From Chloroflexota bacterium (lineage in GTDB: Bacteria > Chloroflexota > Dehalococcoidia > SM23-28-2 > RBG-16-64-32), in NCBI GenBank assembly GCA_036741795.1, contig DAINRO010000001.1:1-63352 (forward strand): a DNA stretch of 63,352 nt. The letters run 5' to 3'. Of this stretch, positions 1,062-46,151 are shown in pieces (positions within the stretch are counted from its first letter, which is position 1; each line of letters starts with the position of its first letter). Below the pieces are notes generated by a model. That model saw only the letters and a program-made list of their open reading frames with translations, did no database searches and was not told where the DNA came from. Made by a program: the position numbers and the translations under genes.

Positions 1062-1166
1062 GATCCTTATCTAGAGCGGTGGAGGGAACGGCCCGCTGAA
1101 GCCCGGCAACCGGTTCAAATTGAGCACGGTGCCAACTCCGACCCCGAACGGGGAGAGATGAGGGAG
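1062..1166 (+). promoter_or_regulatory. SAM-I (S-box) riboswitch
   Basis: TCCTTATCTAGAGCGGTGGAGGGAACGGCCCGCTGAAGCCCGGCAACC...GGTGCCAACTCCGACC...GAGAGATGAGGGA matches the S-box core (UUAUCAAGAG-GGUGGAGGGA-UGGCCC-GAARCCCGGCAACC...GGUGCYAAxUCC...AGAUAAG). P1 strands TCCTTATC and GATGAGGGA pair. Confidence 0.85.
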
Positions 1167-34563: not shown

Positions 34564-35106
34564 TTACTGGGGAATGGAAAGTACGTCGCCGGGCTGGAGG
34601 ACGTACTCGAGGTCCAGGCCATTGATGGCGGCGAGGTCGGCGGGATCGTACCCGTAGGCCAGGGCGATGCTGCTCCATGTGTCGCCTTCCTGGACGGTGT
34701 ACTCCAGTGGCCCGGGATCGACGGGAACCTCTGTGGGTGGCGGTGGCGCTTCCGTCGGCGCAGGCGTGGGAGCCGCTGTTGGGACTTCGGTTGGCGCCGG
34801 TGTAGGCGTGGCGGACGAAGGAGAGCCGCTCCCCTGGGGCGTCAGGGCCGGGGTCGCGGTGGGTTCGGACTGGATGAGGTCCGAGGACTCGCCAGGCACG
34901 GATGGTGGCCGCACGATGAGCCAGAGAGCGAGGACGGTGCCGATGAGGAGCCCACCCAGGGCGAGACGAAATGCGCTCCGCGAGGGAGTGGCGTTGAGGG
35001 GGTCGAGGCAGGATGCGCAGAGGCTTGCGCCGTGGTCGGGGCAATAGTCATTGCCGCAGCGGGTGCACCGCTGCGTGTCCTCCCGCTGGCACGAAAAACA
35101 GCTCAT
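34564..35106 (-). CDS. zinc-ribbon / TM / Pro-Thr linker / LysM-domain protein
   Basis: 180 aa. N-terminal Cys cluster (CFSCQ...CTRCGNDYCPDHGASLCASC), one TM helix (LALGGLLIGTVLALWLIV), a P/T/A-rich linker, and C-terminal LysM (YTVQEGDTWSSIALAYGYDPADLAAINGL...LQPGDVLSIP). Confidence 0.8.
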   Translation of the reverse strand: MSCFSCQREDTQRCTRCGNDYCPDHGASLCASCLDPLNATPSRSAFRLALGGLLIGTVLALWLIVRPPSVPGESSDLIQSEPTATPALTPQGSGSPSSATPTPAPTEVPTAAPTPAPTEAPPPPTEVPVDPGPLEYTVQEGDTWSSIALAYGYDPADLAAINGLDLEYVLQPGDVLSIPQ

Positions 35107-35172: not shown

Positions 35173-35577
35173 TTACTCGAGGTCGACGGTAGCGCCAGCC
35201 TCCTGGAGCTTCTTCTGGGCCTCTTCCGCGTCGGCCTTGCCGATGCCTTCCTTCACGTTCACGGGCGCGCCCTCGACGAGGTCCTTGGCCTCCTTGAGGC
35301 CGAGGGTCGTGATCTCGCGGACGGCCTTGATGACGTTGATCTTGTTGGCGCCTGCGTCCTTCAGAACGACGTTGAACTCGGCCTTTTCCTCGGCAGCGGC
35401 TGGAGCGGCGCCATCACCGCCGGCAGCGGCAGCGGCCGGCGCTGCTGCCATCGCGACGGGGGCGGCGGCGGTGATGCCGAACTCGTCCTGGATCTTCTCG
35501 TTGAGGTCCCGCAGTTCGATGATCGTCATCTCTTTGATGATGTCGAGGACCTGGTCTACCTTCGTTGCTGTTGCCAT
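35173..35577 (-). CDS. rplL: 50S ribosomal protein L7/L12
   Basis: 134 aa. Ala-rich hinge, then C-terminal [27 protein letters not shown]. Confidence 0.96.
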
Positions 35578-35623: not shown

Positions 35624-36184
35624 CTAGGCCGTGGCTTCCATCTGTTTTGCTCGCGCTTCTATCAATCCCGGCAGCTCGCTGAGCAGGGACTGGAGGAGCA
35701 GCGTCAGCTCCTGCAAAGGCCCGTCGAGGAGGGCGATAAAGTTGGCGAGCGGCGATTGCATCTGGCCCATGAACTGGGCGAGTAGCACTGGCTTCGGCGG
35801 GATCTTCGTCAGGTCGCGAAGGTCGTTCGCGGTCAGGGTGGACCCGTCGAGGAACCCGCCCTGCACGGCGAAGGCCTGGGGCGCGGCCGTCGCGTAGGCG
35901 CCGACCGCTTTGGCCGCCTCGATGATGTCGTCGTAGGTGAGGGCCAGCGCTGTCGGCCCCTCGACGATGTCCATCAAAGACGCCTTGCCTGCCTGCTCGG
36001 CGGCGAGTTTGAGCAGGGTGTTCTTGACGACCATGACTTCGATGCCGCCTTCGCGCAGCTTCCGGCGCAGTTCCTGCATCTCCTTCACGGTCATCCCCCG
36101 GTAGTGGGTGCTGACGACCATCGTGGAGCGTTCGAGCACGTCCTTGAGCTCGGCTACGGCGTCGATCTTTTCTTGTGTGGGCAT
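35624..36184 (-). CDS. rplJ: 50S ribosomal protein L10
   Basis: 186 aa, MPTQEKIDAVAELKDVLERSTMVVSTHYRGMTVKEMQELRRKLRE... Confidence 0.94.
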   Translation of the reverse strand: MPTQEKIDAVAELKDVLERSTMVVSTHYRGMTVKEMQELRRKLREGGIEVMVVKNTLLKLAAEQAGKASLMDIVEGPTALALTYDDIIEAAKAVGAYATAAPQAFAVQGGFLDGSTLTANDLRDLTKIPPKPVLLAQFMGQMQSPLANFIALLDGPLQELTLLLQSLLSELPGLIEARAKQMEATA

Positions 36185-36393
36185 TCACCCTCCGTTTCTG
36201 CGTCCCCGGTGGACAAAAGAAAAGCCCCTCGCCGACGCGAGGGACAAGGTGCAAGGCTTACCCTGCTCTGTCCTTCACCTCGGCGGGCTCCTTCAGAGAA
36301 GGACTTAAGCCTGGGGCACCTGCTGTCTCTGGTGGTGGTCTTGTGTTCGGTTGTAGCGCGAAGTGTATCGCGGTCGCCGGTCTAGCTCAACAG
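36185..36393 (-). promoter_or_regulatory. candidate L10 leader (rplJ 5' UTR) with internal attenuator hairpin
   Basis: 209-nt untranslated gap between rplA and rplJ. On the minus strand, CCCTCGC-gtcg-GCGAGGG (36242-36225) is followed by GCTTTTCTTTTGT (36224-36212), about 25 nt before the rplJ RBS (GGAGGG). Confidence 0.5.
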
Positions 36394-37116
36394 CTAAGCG
36401 GCGGCTTTACCAGCGGACGTGGTGGCCTGGATCTCCAGCGGGACGCCGGGACCCATCGTGGTGGTCAGCGTCAGGCTGCGGATGTACTGGCCCTTGGAAC
36501 CGGCCGGCTTTTCCCGCATCACCGCTTCGACGAGGGAGTTGAGGTTGTCGAGAAGGGCTTCTTCAGTGAAGCTGATCTTGCCGAGGGGCACGTGAACGAG
36601 GTTCGTGCGGTCGGTGCGGAACTCAACGCGTCCTTGCTTGGCGTCCTTGATTGCCTTCGGCATGTCGTCGCCATCGACGACGGTATTGGTGCGCGGGTTT
36701 GGCATGAGGCCGCGGGGGCCGAGGACGCGGCCGAGGCGTCCGACCTTACCCATCATCTCCTTGGTAGCAAGCGCGACCTCGAAGTCCAGGAATCCTCCCT
36801 CGACCTTTTTGACCAGGTCGTCGCCACCTACGACATCAGCGCCGGCCCCTTCAGCGAGGCGAGCCGCCTCGCCTTCGGCGAAGACGAGGACGCGCTGGCC
36901 CTTGCCGAGACCGTGGGGGAGGACAATGGTTCCGCGAAGCTGCTGGTCTGCGTGGCGAGTGTCGAGGCCGGTGCGGATGTGGAGCTCGACGGTCTCGTCG
37001 AACTTAACGTAGGTCGTCTCCTTCAGGAGTTTGATCCCCTCTTCGGGCGTGTACTCCCGCTCGCGATCCACCTTCTCGAGGGCTGCCAGGTACTTCTTGC
37101 CGTGCTTTGCCATCAT
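36394..37116 (-). CDS. rplA: 50S ribosomal protein L1 (model using the internal ATG-ATG start)
   Basis: MMAKHGKKYLAALEKVDREREYTPEEGIKLLKETTYVKFDETVELHIRTGLDTRHADQQLRGTIVLPHGLGK... is a canonical L1. An SD-like GAAGGA sits 6 nt upstream of the ATGATG at 37116-37111. Confidence 0.85.
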   Translation of the reverse strand: MMAKHGKKYLAALEKVDREREYTPEEGIKLLKETTYVKFDETVELHIRTGLDTRHADQQLRGTIVLPHGLGKGQRVLVFAEGEAARLAEGAGADVVGGDDLVKKVEGGFLDFEVALATKEMMGKVGRLGRVLGPRGLMPNPRTNTVVDGDDMPKAIKDAKQGRVEFRTDRTNLVHVPLGKISFTEEALLDNLNSLVEAVMREKPAGSKGQYIRSLTLTTTMGPGVPLEIQATTSAGKAAA

Positions 37117-37512
37117 TGCCAGTCCTTCTACAGGAACGAGCTTCTGCTCTACCGGATCGGCAGCGAGTAGAAAGCTTTCCATCGTCACAGCGCCCAGAAG
37201 CGGCTGAGCGTCATTATCGTCCCACATGCAGAGGTTTGCGCTGACCTTATCTCCAATGCGAATCGGTACTTCAGCGAGGTCATACTCTACGGTGGTGCCA
37301 TCGGCTATCTTAAACCTCTCGCGGCGCGTGGGTTCGTGACCAAGCTCCCGCAAAATACGCCCCGGAATCCTGCTGAAGGTCGCGCCGGTGTCGACGAGCG
37401 CTTCCACCTGCACGAACCGTGTCCGAGACTGGTCGCCAACTTCGAACGTAAACGTGAAGCTGCCCACTGCGTCACCTTGCGCGCGACGAGTTGCGCTGTA
37501 CTTGGTAACCAT
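36394..37512 (-). CDS. full open frame: retropepsin-like (clan AA, DTGA) aspartic protease module fused in frame to L1
   Basis: 372-codon ORF with no stop. The ATG at 37512 is 3 nt after the rplK stop. The first ~132 aa carry EALVDTGATFSRIP and PLLGAVTMESF (retropepsin hallmarks), then run directly into the L1 N-terminus. Confidence 0.6.
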   Translation of the reverse strand: MVTKYSATRRAQGDAVGSFTFTFEVGDQSRTRFVQVEALVDTGATFSRIPGRILRELGHEPTRRERFKIADGTTVEYDLAEVPIRIGDKVSANLCMWDDNDAQPLLGAVTMESFLLAADPVEQKLVPVEGLAMMAKHGKKYLAALEKVDREREYTPEEGIKLLKETTYVKFDETVELHIRTGLDTRHADQQLRGTIVLPHGLGKGQRVLVFAEGEAARLAEGAGADVVGGDDLVKKVEGGFLDFEVALATKEMMGKVGRLGRVLGPRGLMPNPRTNTVVDGDDMPKAIKDAKQGRVEFRTDRTNLVHVPLGKISFTEEALLDNLNSLVEAVMREKPAGSKGQYIRSLTLTTTMGPGVPLEIQATTSAGKAAA

Positions 37513-37515
37513 CGC

Positions 37516-37941
37516 TCACGAACCGATCTCAACGCCCATGCTACGGCACGTGCCTTCCACCATACGCATGGCGGCGTCGATGTCGTTGGCGTTGAGGTCC
37601 TTCATCTTGGCCTCGGCGATCTGCTGTACCTGGGCGCGGCTCAGGGTGCCGACCTTCTCCCGCTTTTGCGCGGAGCTGCCCTTGTCGATGCCCAGAGCCT
37701 TACGGATTAGGTCCGAAGCCGGCGGGGTCTTGAGGATGAATGCGAAGGAGCGGTCCTCGAAGACGGTGATCTCGACGGGGATAATACTGCCCGCCTGCAT
37801 CGAGGTCTTCTCGTTGTATTCCTTGCAGAACCCCATGATGTTAGCGCCGTGCTGACCAAGAGCCGGGCCGACTGGCGGCGCAGGCGTCGCCTGACCGGCA
37901 GGGAGTTGCAGTTTGATGATCGCTCGTACTTTCTTTGCCAT
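37516..37941 (-). CDS. rplK: 50S ribosomal protein L11
   Basis: 141 aa, [43 protein letters not shown]... Confidence 0.96.
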
Positions 37942-37962
37942 GTGACTGGTTCGTGAGGGTGG

Positions 37963-38622
37963 TTAGAGTCTTTCGACCTGGAGGAAGTCCAGTTCGACCG
38001 GGGTTTCCCGGCCGAAGATAGACACCGCTACCTTCACCTTGCCTTTCTCTGCGTTTATTTCTTCCACGGTCCCGACCATGTCGGAGAAGGGGCCGTCCAC
38101 TACGCGAACGCTCTGACCTTCCGCAAAGCCCACCTTCACCACCGGCTCATCCGCCTTCATCTGCCGAATAATTGAGCGTAGCTCTGTCTCCTCTAGCGGC
38201 GTCGGCGCCGTGCCGGAACCGACGAAGCCGGTGACACCAGGGGAGTTCCGGACCACCGTCCAGGCCTTGCTCGAAAGCGCCATGTCCTGCTCCGAGGAGG
38301 AGGGGTCGTCCTGCGTCAGCGTGATCATTTGCACCAGCACATAGCCCGGGAAGATTTTGCGAGGCACGGTGCGTCGCTGTCCGTCCTTGATCTCGATCTC
38401 GTCTACGGAAGGCACGATCACCCGGAACACCAGGTCCTGCGCGTCCATCGACTTGATCCGCTGGTCAAGGTTGGTCTTCACCCGGTCTTCGTAACCGGAG
38501 TAGGTGTGCACCACGTACCAGGACGAGCCCGCGCGCAGCAACTCATCATCGCTGATGAAATCGCGTTTTGTGCTCTCTGGCGGAGCGTCCTCCAGGACGT
38601 CCGCCGCCTTCCTCTTCGCCAT
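37963..38622 (-). CDS. nusG: transcription termination/antitermination factor NusG
   Basis: 219 aa. NGN domain ([15 protein letters not shown]) and C-terminal KOW ([21 protein letters not shown]). Has an N-terminal ~30-aa extension. Confidence 0.93.
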
Positions 38623-40458: not shown

Positions 40459-40534
40459 TGGAGCCCACGCCCGGACTCGAACCGGGGACCTCGTTCTTAC
40501 CAAGAACGCGCTCTACCAACTGAGCTACGTGGGC
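40459..40534 (-). tRNA. tRNA-Thr (anticodon GGU), CCA encoded
   Basis: The reverse complement GCCCACGTAGCTCAGTTGGTAGAGCGCGTTCTTGGTAAGAACGAGGTCCCCGGTTCGAGTCCGGGCGTGGGCTCCA folds as a cloverleaf. Anticodon loop TTGGTAA. Confidence 0.92.
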
Positions 40535-40588
40535 TCTTGTCCTCCAAGGGTCCCTTCGCGAGAAGGGTGCCCGTTTCTGAACCGAGTC

Positions 40589-40675
40589 TGGTGGCGGGAG
40601 CAGGATTCGAACCTGCGTAGCCCAAAGGGCGCCAAGTTTACAGCCTGGTGCAATTGACCGCTCTGCCATCCCGCC
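40589..40675 (-). tRNA. tRNA-Tyr (anticodon GUA), long variable arm, CCA encoded
   Basis: Reverse complement GGCGGGATGGCAGAGCGGTCAATTGCACCAGGCTGTAAACTTGGCGCCCTTTGGGCTACGCAGGTTCGAATCCTGCTCCCGCCACCA. Anticodon loop CTGTAAA, variable stem GCCC/GGGC. Confidence 0.92.
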
Positions 40676-40719
40676 ATTGGGAGTGTGGGTCAGCGGCCAG
40701 GGAACCAGTTCCTCTCGCG

Positions 40720-40794
40720 TGGAGCCGAAGGTGGGATTCGAACCCACGACCTAGCGATTACAAATCGCTTGCGCTACCACTGCGCCACTTCGGC
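40720..40794 (-). tRNA. tRNA-Thr (anticodon UGU), CCA encoded
   Basis: Reverse complement GCCGAAGTGGCGCAGTGGTAGCGCAAGCGATTTGTAATCGCTAGGTCGTGGGTTCGAATCCCACCTTCGGCTCCA. Anticodon loop TTTGTAA. Confidence 0.92.
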
Positions 40795-45888: not shown

Positions 45889-45911
45889 CCCGGTCAGGGT
45901 CGTCGCCAACA

Positions 45912-46046
45912 GCCTCTCCCTCTTCTCGCCTACGGGGTTAGCTGACGGGTTCGGCATGAAGGAGTCTGCCTATCCCTCCGAGGAAGGAATTCACCCCAGG
46001 TTCGGTTCCCTCGTTCCCTTCGCGTTGCGGCGAAGAGATTCGGCGC
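45912..46046 (-). promoter_or_regulatory. c-di-AMP riboswitch (ydaO/yuaA class)
   Basis: Minus strand GCGCCGAATCTC...ACGAGGGAACCGAACCTGGGGTGAATTCC...GGAGGGATAGG...GCCGAACCCGTCAGCTAACCCCGTAGGCGAGAAGAGGGAGAGG. This matches, block for block, the conserved elements I recall from structurally characterised ydaO riboswitches (GCCGAAUCC / ACGGAGGAACC / GGGGUUAAUC / AGGGAUA / CCCGACAGCUAACUCCGGAGGC / AAGGAAGGAG). Confidence 0.8.
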
Positions 46047-46151
46047 TTTGAACTACTTATGTTTGGACACGTCCAGCCGGGAAGCCGGGGTGCCCTTCGT
46101 CTAGTTGAACGCGCCGGTCAGGCGAAAGTTACGGAGACAAGGGTGTGTCGA

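Follow-up and report, generated by a model that had tools for sequence, protein, structure and literature searches.

The window analyzed here is a stretch of 63,352 nucleotides (nt) from a member of the Chloroflexota (contig DAINRO010000001.1). It carries on its minus strand a ribosomal protein operon in the order tuf, rpmG, secE, nusG, rplK, a fusion open reading frame (ORF), the L10 leader, rplJ and rplL. The fusion ORF encodes a retropepsin-like aspartic protease module joined in frame to ribosomal protein L1. The textbook examples of retropepsins come from retroviruses and retroelements, and the rplK/rplA boundary is among the most conserved of bacterial operon junctions and a site of L1 autoregulation in several phyla. 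To our knowledge, bacterial ribosomal proteins are almost never made as polyproteins. We found that the fusion is real, recurrent and undescribed, and that the protease module appears from sequence comparisons to behave as an exchangeable cassette.

The fusion ORF begins with an ATG at 37512, which lies 3 nt beyond the rplK stop codon (TGAgcgATG), and runs for 372 codons to a TAG ending at 36394. The frame remains open without a stop across ...VPVEGLAM to MAKHGKKYLAALEK and into a complete L1. The codon of Asp41 occupies positions 37390-37392 within the stretch encoding EALVDTGATFSRIP, and the motif PLLGAVTMESF is found later in the module. A Shine-Dalgarno (SD)-like GAAGGA precedes an internal ATGATG, 6 nt from the first ATG and 9 nt from the second. 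The main ones among these features had been pointed out in the initial annotation of this DNA, and the sequence agrees with each of its statements; its hand tally of codons ending in A or T also proved exact (49 of 132 in the protease segment against 47 of 238 in the L1 segment, Fisher p=3e-4). The first 15 residues form an N-terminal extension that is translationally coupled to rplK, and its motif ...[ST]KAQG[ED]xVG[ST]F is kept in a subset of fusions with 65-72% overall identity.

Ribosomal protein uL1 normally autoregulates its operon via sites before rplK and/or rplA (PMC10931766). A permissive Rfam scan of positions 36300-38100 found no leader-like or L1-binding RNA in the protease segment, and a scan for promoters and terminators found none inside the cassette. 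Judged by the L10 leader RNA, the operon is otherwise canonical: this leader and the window ORFs show the synteny secE-nusG-rplK-rplA-rplJ-rplL, which is the same in relatives. The features of the locus are listed in Table 1.

Table 1. Features of the rplK-rplL region of the window and the evidence for each
Feature	Position	Strand	Evidence
rplK (ribosomal protein L11, 141 aa)	37516..37941	-	ORF list; Pfam Ribosomal_L11_N and Ribosomal_L11 on the identical gene of contig L001
Fusion ORF, 372 aa: retropepsin-like protease module and ribosomal protein L1	36394..37512	-	Sequence, profiles, homologues
Cassette, ~400 nt, from just after the rplK stop to the L1 ATG; absent in L176/L177/L178	37114..37515	-	blastn, identity profiles, GC content at third codon positions (GC3)
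Protease N-terminal extension, residues 1-15, MVTKYSATRRAQGDA	37468..37512	-	Low predicted local distance difference test (pLDDT) score; motif kept in some fusions
Retropepsin-like protease core, residues 16-132	37117..37467	-	Pfam, TIGR03698, AlphaFold2 (AF2), Foldseek
Catalytic Asp41-Thr42-Gly43 (GAC ACC GGC)	37384..37392	-	Conservation in alignments
Second conserved motif L-L-G-A-V, residues 105-109	37186..37200	-	Conservation in alignments
Junction E-G-L-A-M-M-A-K-H-G-K-K: hydrophobic protease tail, proposed cleavage region and L1 N-terminus	37093..37128	-	Junction table, AF2 confidence dip
SD-like GAAGGA within the protease coding sequence	37123..37128	-	Sequence
L1 part, 239 aa, MAKHGKKY..., could stand alone as rplA	36394..37113	-	TIGR01169; comparison with L176/L178
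L10 leader RNA upstream of rplJ	36209..36350	-	Rfam RF00557, 47.5 bits, gathering score 44
rplJ	35624-36184	-	ORF list; Pfam Ribosomal_L10 on the same gene in L001
rplL	35173-35577	-	ORF list; Pfam Ribosomal_L12 on the same gene in L001

Profile and motif comparisons of the translated module assign it to the clan AA retropepsin-like aspartic proteases. The Pfam families gag-asp_proteas (PF13975) and Asp_protease_2 (PF13650) both match residues 35-108 above their gathering scores, with 30.5 against 28.2 bits and 27.9 against 24.3 bits, respectively. The NCBIfam model TIGR03698 (clan_AA_DTGF, AF_0612-type) aligns over positions 3-107 of its 107 with E=1e-12, but its 48.3 bits lie below the cut-off of 57.35, and by this NCBI score the module is a relative of the family and not a member. 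The D-T-G-F signature of TIGR03698 is likewise replaced by D-T-G-A or D-T-G-S in the window and nearly all of its relatives. Of the profiles named in the initial annotation, gag-asp_proteas and Asp_protease_2 support the assignment and TIGR03698 falls short of its cut-off. The remainder of the ORF is a canonical bacterial L1: Ribosomal_L1 (PF00687) matches residues 163-355 with E=2e-63 and TIGR01169 (rplA_bact) matches residues 136-362 (model positions 1-225 of 227) with 305.4 bits against a cut-off of 216.3.

The catalytic motif reads A-L-V-D41-T-G-A, in accordance with the hydrophobic-hydrophobic-Asp-Thr/Ser-Gly-Ala pattern of clan AA. Among 102 aligned fusions, whose protease parts share a mean identity of just 52%, D41, G43, G72, G107 and D119 are invariant and T42 is at least 90% conserved. 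An alignment of 36 family members has D-T-G and L106/G107/A108 invariant, and the catalytic residues are conserved in unfused forms too. The invariance of the catalytic residues suggests that the module is under selection as an enzyme.

The AF2 model of the module has a pLDDT of 88, with values above 90 across residues 20-130. The top Foldseek matches to this model were HIV-1 protease (E=3e-5), Rickettsia APRc and HTLV protease, all with a match probability of 1.0, template modeling scores of 0.6-0.74 (normalized to the target) and 12-21% sequence identity to the solved structures. The module is therefore predicted to adopt the retropepsin monomer fold. A search of PDB sequences with the module alone had returned spurious sigma-factor matches only, so that the comparison of folds was needed. 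In the AF2 model of the whole fusion there are two confident domains, and confidence dips (pLDDT ~63) at residues 131-140, which form the junction. An affiliation with defense systems or phages was rejected, as PADLOC profiles gave no match at E<=0.1 and the sole match among PHROGs profiles had E=0.05 and no known function.

The sequence is metagenome-derived, and fused and unfused forms differ by single-nucleotide length changes, which raises the possibility that a missed stop codon, a frameshift or a chimeric assembly made the apparent fusion. The identical 372-aa protein, however, was called on four contigs from different assemblies. Over 3.1 kb, 12 mismatches separate one of these, L001, from the window; in the protease part the differences are 3 synonymous and 0 non-synonymous, and 3 synonymous differences among near-identical contigs are too few for a ratio of the two substitution rates (dN/dS). 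Among the 120 best database matches to the full fusion, 105 are proteins of 338-381 aa with a D-[TS]-G module before L1 and 59-78% identity to the window. When proteins are clustered at 90% identity, more than 100 clusters share this fusion, many of them named just 'ribosomal protein L1', and the frame is kept throughout these diverged sequences. With identical and diverged fusions in many assemblies, and with flanking genes that agree with each other across the cassette (see below), an artefact is effectively refuted, and we give this explanation next to no weight.

Two further possibilities were rejected on the same material. The more than 100 clusters, together with 44 fused metagenome loci, show that the fusion is not unique; nor are there many independent fusion types, since all fusions collapse to a single representative (P0186) in a library clustered at 50% identity and so constitute one family. 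The arrangement is widespread in uncultured Chloroflexota, mostly labelled Dehalococcoidia. Full-text literature searches found no description of a protease-L1 fusion, and to this extent the initial annotation was right to know of no operon with such architecture, although the case is far from a one-off.

We sampled metagenome loci ranked by their similarity to the window protease, a ranking that is blind to the fusion state. Among ~55 loci of the rplK-rplA slot type, 44 were fused and ~11 unfused, and ~25 further loci were paralogs elsewhere. Comparison of the junction in relatives revealed three states of the slot: the module is fused, separate or absent. Fused examples include L011, a metagenome-assembled genome (MAG) of the Dehalococcoidia, and P0003. 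The protease is a separate ORF in P0001 (76% identical, stop 3 nt before rplA), in P0016/L004 (stop/start overlap TGATG), in P0005/L006 (short C-terminal tail) and in L094 (14-nt out-of-frame overlap). The junctions of the window, GGACTGGCAATGATGGC, and of L004, GGACGGCTGTGATGGC, are one nucleotide apart in length; a 1-nt length change thus turns the fusion into the overlapping TGATG form, and both forms persist.

The slot is empty in L178 (L1 95% and L11 96% identical to the window) and in L176/L177 (91% and 96%), which by L11 and L1 are the closest relatives of the window. In these loci rplK-TAG is followed by GAGCA(A/G)ACA(A) and the ATG of rplA, without any protease remnant. Alignment of L176 and L178 to the window by blastn leaves a gap of 406 nt in the window (37114-37519) against 9-14 nt in the relatives, and the L1 part of the fusion is 91-95% identical to their stand-alone L1. 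The L1s of the three empty-slot loci are nested within the protease-bearing L1s in the L1 tree.

Other loci vary the architecture of the slot. On the metagenome contig Ga0214473_10059659 (L120:1453-2822) the junction '...GLAMMA' is interrupted after the first L1 codons by ~840 nt with two ORFs, one of 212 aa that by eye resembles HEPN proteins and one of 117 aa; rplA restarts with MAKH 3' of the insert. The same hotspot seems to have taken up a second insertion here. Four related soil contigs (L103-L106) have 484-485 nt between rplK and the protease core, where ~50 nt is usual and exactly 50 nt is found in 17 loci. In many loci (e.g. L011:817-866, L121, L131, L136 and L137) the spacer encodes conserved N-terminal peptides specific to subfamilies (MAKGKTLRRHPHAREK; MV.QGR.RV..GDG; MVREAIPASSK.QGES). 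The peptide 'MAKGKTLRQH' in L011, L004 and L120 prompted the idea that the left edge of the cassette holds a decayed duplicate of the rplA start. Local alignment of 38 distinct spacers to the L1 N-terminus, compared with shuffled sequences, gave no significant similarity (0 of 38 at p<=0.05), and the idea was dropped. A slot-type protease, 59% identical to that of the window and with a GTGA overlap with rplK, is present in a MAG labelled Acidimicrobiia (L003, GCA_050744665.1), on a contig that ends before the junction; this reflects either mis-binning or a wider host range.

The history of the protease differs from that of the genes on either side of it. Across 37 loci with DNA, pairwise distances of L11 and L1 are closely correlated (r=0.88, Mantel p=0.001), and those of the protease are correlated with neither flank (r=0.10 and 0.13). 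Within the 102 fusions the protease and L1 parts of the same ORFs give r=0.04 (Mantel p=0.19), against r=0.87 for the two halves of L1 and r=0.70 for the two halves of the protease, which served as controls. The loci L096 and L144, for example, have L11 and L1 that are 96% and 95% identical and proteases that are 40% identical. The reverse pattern is seen in L130 and L092, with proteases 86% identical between flanks of 79% and 73%. In discordant pairs the nucleotide identity is 0.8-0.9 in both flanks and 0.3-0.6 exactly from the rplK stop to the rplA start.

Base composition sets the module apart as well. GC3 in the window is 0.63 in the protease and 0.80 in the L1 part, and lies at 0.79-0.86 over rplK, nusG, tuf, rplJ, rplL, secE and the L1 part. 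In each of 52 loci compared, the protease has a lower GC3 than its flanks have on average (mean difference -0.15, p=3.5e-10). The initial annotation had read the low GC3 as a sign of later insertion and/or low translation. A later or foreign insertion is supported, also by the empty slot in the closest relatives; low translation alone is no explanation, since the deficit is equal in fusions that lack a methionine at the L1 start (-0.14; unfused forms, -0.16). A module whose phylogeny and composition are decoupled from flanks that agree with one another appears to have been gained, lost and replaced at a fixed site. We conjecture that the exchange took the simplest route, namely recombination through the conserved rplK and rplA flanks.

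Outside the slot the protease family is common. In GTDB representative genomes, 79 of the 80 best protease loci are paralogs away from it, several per genome and often abutting the stop of unrelated genes, such as those for zinc dehydrogenase, methylmalonyl-CoA mutase, amidohydrolases, an MFS transporter, acyl-CoA synthetase, RecA, transketolase and Nuo51. With unrelated housekeeping genes as the neighbors of these 79 paralogs, a fixed partner gene for the family was rejected. The slot copies are monophyletic with respect to the paralogs, and in the protease tree unfused copies are nested at 4 places among fused ones. Hundreds of stand-alone homologues of ~118-125 aa exist. The copies in GTDB representatives (L012-L090) show the family to be multi-copy in Dehalococcoidia; they are often in tandem, and typically a copy adjoins or overlaps the stop codon of a preceding gene that is unrelated, and is followed by a convergent gene. 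Family members also occur in MAGs labelled Armatimonadota, Rokubacteria/Methylomirabilia, Gemmatimonadota and others.

At the junction of the 102 fusions, the position before the conserved Ala is Met in 86, Leu in 8, Phe and Tyr in 3 each, and Asn and Val in 1 each; it is never charged. The residue preceding it is Leu in 46 and Met in 40, and the position following it is Ala in 92. The frequent methionine bears on an explanation in which the cassette is a tolerated hitch-hiker: L1 would come essentially only from the internal SD motif and ATG, the protease would be weakly translated through coupling to rplK, and the full-length fusion would be an unimportant by-product. The spacing of GAAGGA and ATGATG in the window favors this explanation, as do the 1-nt change that yields the persistent TGATG form, the lack of the cassette in the closest relatives and the low GC3 of the module.

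The loci without methionine tell against it. At 5 of the 44 fused metagenome loci, and likewise in several further protein clusters, there is no ATG, GTG or TTG at the L1 start, which is occupied by Tyr, Phe, Asn or a Leu encoded by CTG. Codons for Tyr, Phe and Asn cannot initiate translation. The junction reads TTG CTA TAC GCC in L091, CTG GCC CTG TTC AGC in L092 and L135 (peptide GLALFSRHGKKY), TTC CAA AAC GCG CTG in L093, L110 and L111 (L093 peptide PFQNALRGKNY), ACC CTG GCC in L112 and TTA CTG TAT GCG in L149. A TTG lies nearby in L091 only, and ATG or GTG in none of these loci. In some lineages, therefore, L1 is apparently obtainable only as the C-terminal part of the fusion. Where an ATG is present, it is preceded by an SD-like motif in just 14 of 39 fused loci, compared with 7 of 9 unfused loci. 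The GC3 deficit is undiminished in the fusions without methionine, where protease codons have to be read as often as those of L1, and the invariant catalytic residues also speak against a mere passenger. For the family we consider this explanation rather doubtful; for the window alone it is quite possible, and there it is compatible with the explanation that we prefer. The suggestion in the initial annotation that L1 is made by itself from the internal start therefore holds as something the window could do and fails as a general rule.

With moderate confidence, we propose that an exchangeable cassette gives rise to a protease-L1 polyprotein that processes itself, and that in the window internal initiation is an additional option. 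Ribosomes that finish rplK would re-initiate 3 nt further on and produce the polyprotein. All retropepsins need to dimerize, and two protease modules would thus come together and cut the hydrophobic junction ...G-L-x-M / A-[KQ]-[HR]-G-K-K-Y, which would release ordinary L1 and free protease. In the window the retained GAAGGA and ATG would additionally start L1 directly, and both routes may operate. The cassette would then be an accessory or a hitch-hiker, one member of a protease family with many copies, rather than a factor dedicated to ribosome maturation. Retropepsins such as HIV-1 protease generally self-excise at hydrophobic sites beside their terminal strands; together with the invariant catalytic Asp and the never-charged junction, this makes self-cleavage the most economical mechanism. 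Two options offered by the initial annotation, a self-processing pro-L1 and a selfish insertion, fit the evidence best when taken together.

Several points weigh against self-processing. The release of L1 by self-cleavage is drawn from the general behavior of retropepsins. The hydrophobic G-L-L-M tail also forms the C-terminus of stand-alone paralogs, so that its conservation may reflect protease structure and not a cleavage site. Methionine is kept at the L1 start in most fusions and the SD motif of the window is a good one, and internal initiation could be the main source of L1 in the window. The loci without methionine lie on short contigs, beyond whose reach a second rplA could lie elsewhere in the genome. 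At some of these loci CTG or TTG might serve as a rare start codon, but not where the codon is TAC/TAT, TTC or AAC. No mobility gene accompanies the cassette. The decoupling was measured as distance matrices on metagenome contigs, and the concordant flanks argue against chimeras while leaving some assembly effects possible.

The fusion might instead stay uncleaved, as a protease tethered to the mobile L1 stalk that becomes active when the stalks of two ribosomes meet, or as a non-catalytic binding module. Most slot-type loci (44 of ~55) are fused, the fusion is obligatory in the lineages without methionine, AF2 predicts two well-folded domains with a short low-confidence linker, and the L1 stalk is peripheral (PMC10931766). 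The N-terminus of L1, however, belongs to RNA-binding domain I (PMC10931766). The unfused and empty-slot states in close relatives indicate that tethering is not required, the replacement of proteases as little as 40% identical on near-identical L1 argues against a co-adapted ribosomal surface, and a purely structural role fits poorly with an invariant catalytic Asp. We regard tethering as improbable. The initial annotation had also speculated that neighboring ribosomal proteins with long disordered tails are the substrates, an idea that finds no support here. The protease is absent in the closest relatives and is exchanged between lineages with 95-96% identical L11 and L1, which counts against any dedicated, co-evolved ribosomal substrate.

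If self-processing is true, a core ribosomal protein is made in bacteria via the action of an aspartic protease on its own polyprotein, and this would bear on the origin of retroviral-type polyprotein processing. The pattern at rplK/rplA is itself unusual, with a cassette gained, lost and swapped while the flanks evolve vertically; such a pattern is otherwise linked to inteins, homing elements and immunity loci. In public databases, hundreds of entries named 'ribosomal protein L1' and 355-381 aa long hold an unannotated protease domain. The family also supplies natural fused, split and empty alleles for direct experiments.

Some features of the window lie outside the fusion gene. The gap of 21 nt between nusG and rplK (37942-37962, minus strand; ccaccctcacgaaccagtcac) has no obvious SD motif. 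The product of a 180-aa ORF 3' of rplL (34564-35106, minus strand) is Cys-rich at its N-terminus and LysM-like at its C-terminus, with a linker rich in Pro and Thr between the two; at this position relatives have the gene of a LysM protein and, after it, one for a Peptidase_C69. Three clustered tRNA genes (40462-40794, minus strand) lie directly upstream of tuf. A cyclic di-AMP riboswitch (45911-46055, minus strand, 92.7 bits) and an S-adenosylmethionine riboswitch (1064-1164, plus strand, 82.7 bits) both score well over their Rfam gathering scores.

Among known systems, the retropepsins of MEROPS clan AA (HIV-1 PR, HTLV PR, Rickettsia APRc) resemble the module in predicted fold, in D-T-G-A after hydrophobic residues, in the later hydrophobic-hydrophobic-Gly motif, in the size of one monomer (~115 aa) and in being made within a longer polypeptide with a hydrophobic C-terminal junction. 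Retroviral PR self-excises from Gag-Pol, and its terminal strands form the dimer interface. In contrast, the module in the window is bacterial and cytosolic, lacks a retroelement context, is fused to a ribosomal protein and is known here from sequence and a structural model. The stand-alone bacterial and archaeal proteases of TIGR03698 and PF13975/PF13650 provide the best sequence-profile matches, including the end-to-end alignment to TIGR03698. Unlike them, the slot copies have DTGA instead of DTGF, score below the TIGR03698 cut-off, form their own clade and are mostly fused to L1.

Proteases associated with ribosomal proteins are known from two other bacterial systems. Prp (MEROPS C108), a cysteine protease whose gene lies between rplU and rpmA, trims L27 (PMC9405229), removing an N-terminal extension from the ribosomal protein encoded directly downstream (PMC9405229, PMC9261936). 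RimB of the RimABK system of Pseudomonas is retropepsin-like, trims polyglutamylated S6 and is also found fused to RimK (PMC11957791). By analogy the cassette could encode a dedicated protease that matures or modifies a ribosomal protein in trans and is kept in the operon for co-expression. Its position between two ribosomal protein genes mirrors that of prp, the action of RimB sets a precedent for a retropepsin-like protease with a ribosomal protein substrate, and the catalytic residues are conserved in unfused forms also. We nevertheless consider such a role very improbable, given that the cassette is absent in relatives with 91-96% identical L1 and L11, that its phylogeny is decoupled from the flanks, that the L11 and L1 N-termini are canonical and without a pro-peptide, and that paralogs of the same family stand behind unrelated metabolic genes.

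The differences from both systems are clear. Prp has an unrelated fold, is a separate and essential gene, is vertically conserved in Firmicutes and removes 8-12 residues, whereas the sole candidate for such an 'extension' of L1 is the protease module, which close relatives do without and which is swapped from one lineage to another. No Pfam or NCBIfam match to the Prp type (C108/DUF464) was found, and the predicted fold is that of a retropepsin. RimB resembles the module in being a retropepsin-like bacterial aspartic protease; its substrate is a ribosomal protein, and it occurs naturally fused to its partner enzyme RimK. It belongs to a different family, trims the poly-Glu tails of S6, is encoded outside ribosomal protein operons and is not fused to a ribosomal protein. 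The RimB/DUF785 type (PF05618) gave no Pfam match at E<=1, its structure 2pma_B ranked only 50 in Foldseek, and the window ORF list has no rimK beside the fusion gene.

In eukaryotes, Finley et al. are said to have described in 1989 the ubiquitin-ribosomal protein fusions Ub-eL40 and Ub-eS31, in which the folded N-terminal partner is reportedly removed by proteolysis before or during ribosome assembly. The likeness is a ribosomal protein made with a folded N-terminal partner. The ubiquitin fusions are ancient and fixed and are cleaved by separate deubiquitinases; in the present fusions the N-terminal partner would do the cutting, and it is mobile and patchily distributed.

The distribution of the cassette is most like that of inteins. 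Both sit in frame at a fixed site in a gene that is strongly conserved and strongly expressed, and both show presence/absence polymorphism in close relatives, clean empty sites and an element phylogeny discordant with that of the host gene. In both, if self-cleavage holds for the cassette, the host protein would be restored post-translationally by catalysis of the element. Unlike inteins, the cassette has no Hint/splicing domain and no homing endonuclease, would be removed by hydrolysis at one junction, is N-terminal and not inside the protein, and belongs to a family that also exists as ordinary stand-alone genes. Pfam finds aspartic protease and L1 domains only, and the likeness is thus one of distribution and logic, not homology. 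It is possible, though on balance unlikely, that the cassette does by proteolysis what an intein does by splicing. It would then be a selfish element, inserted in frame at the beginning of a highly conserved ribosomal protein gene and passed on horizontally, that spreads and is replaced by recombination through the rplK and rplA flanks and spares its host by cutting itself from the L1 polyprotein. After decay of the internal L1 start, as in the lineages without methionine, the host would depend on the protease of the element. This would amount to bacterial, retroelement-free retropepsin polyprotein processing. Clan AA proteases and protease genes within ribosomal protein operons are each familiar, and the locus is most readily seen as a fresh variation on them; the chance that it stands for a hitherto unrecognized class of elements that excise themselves at the protein level is not negligible.

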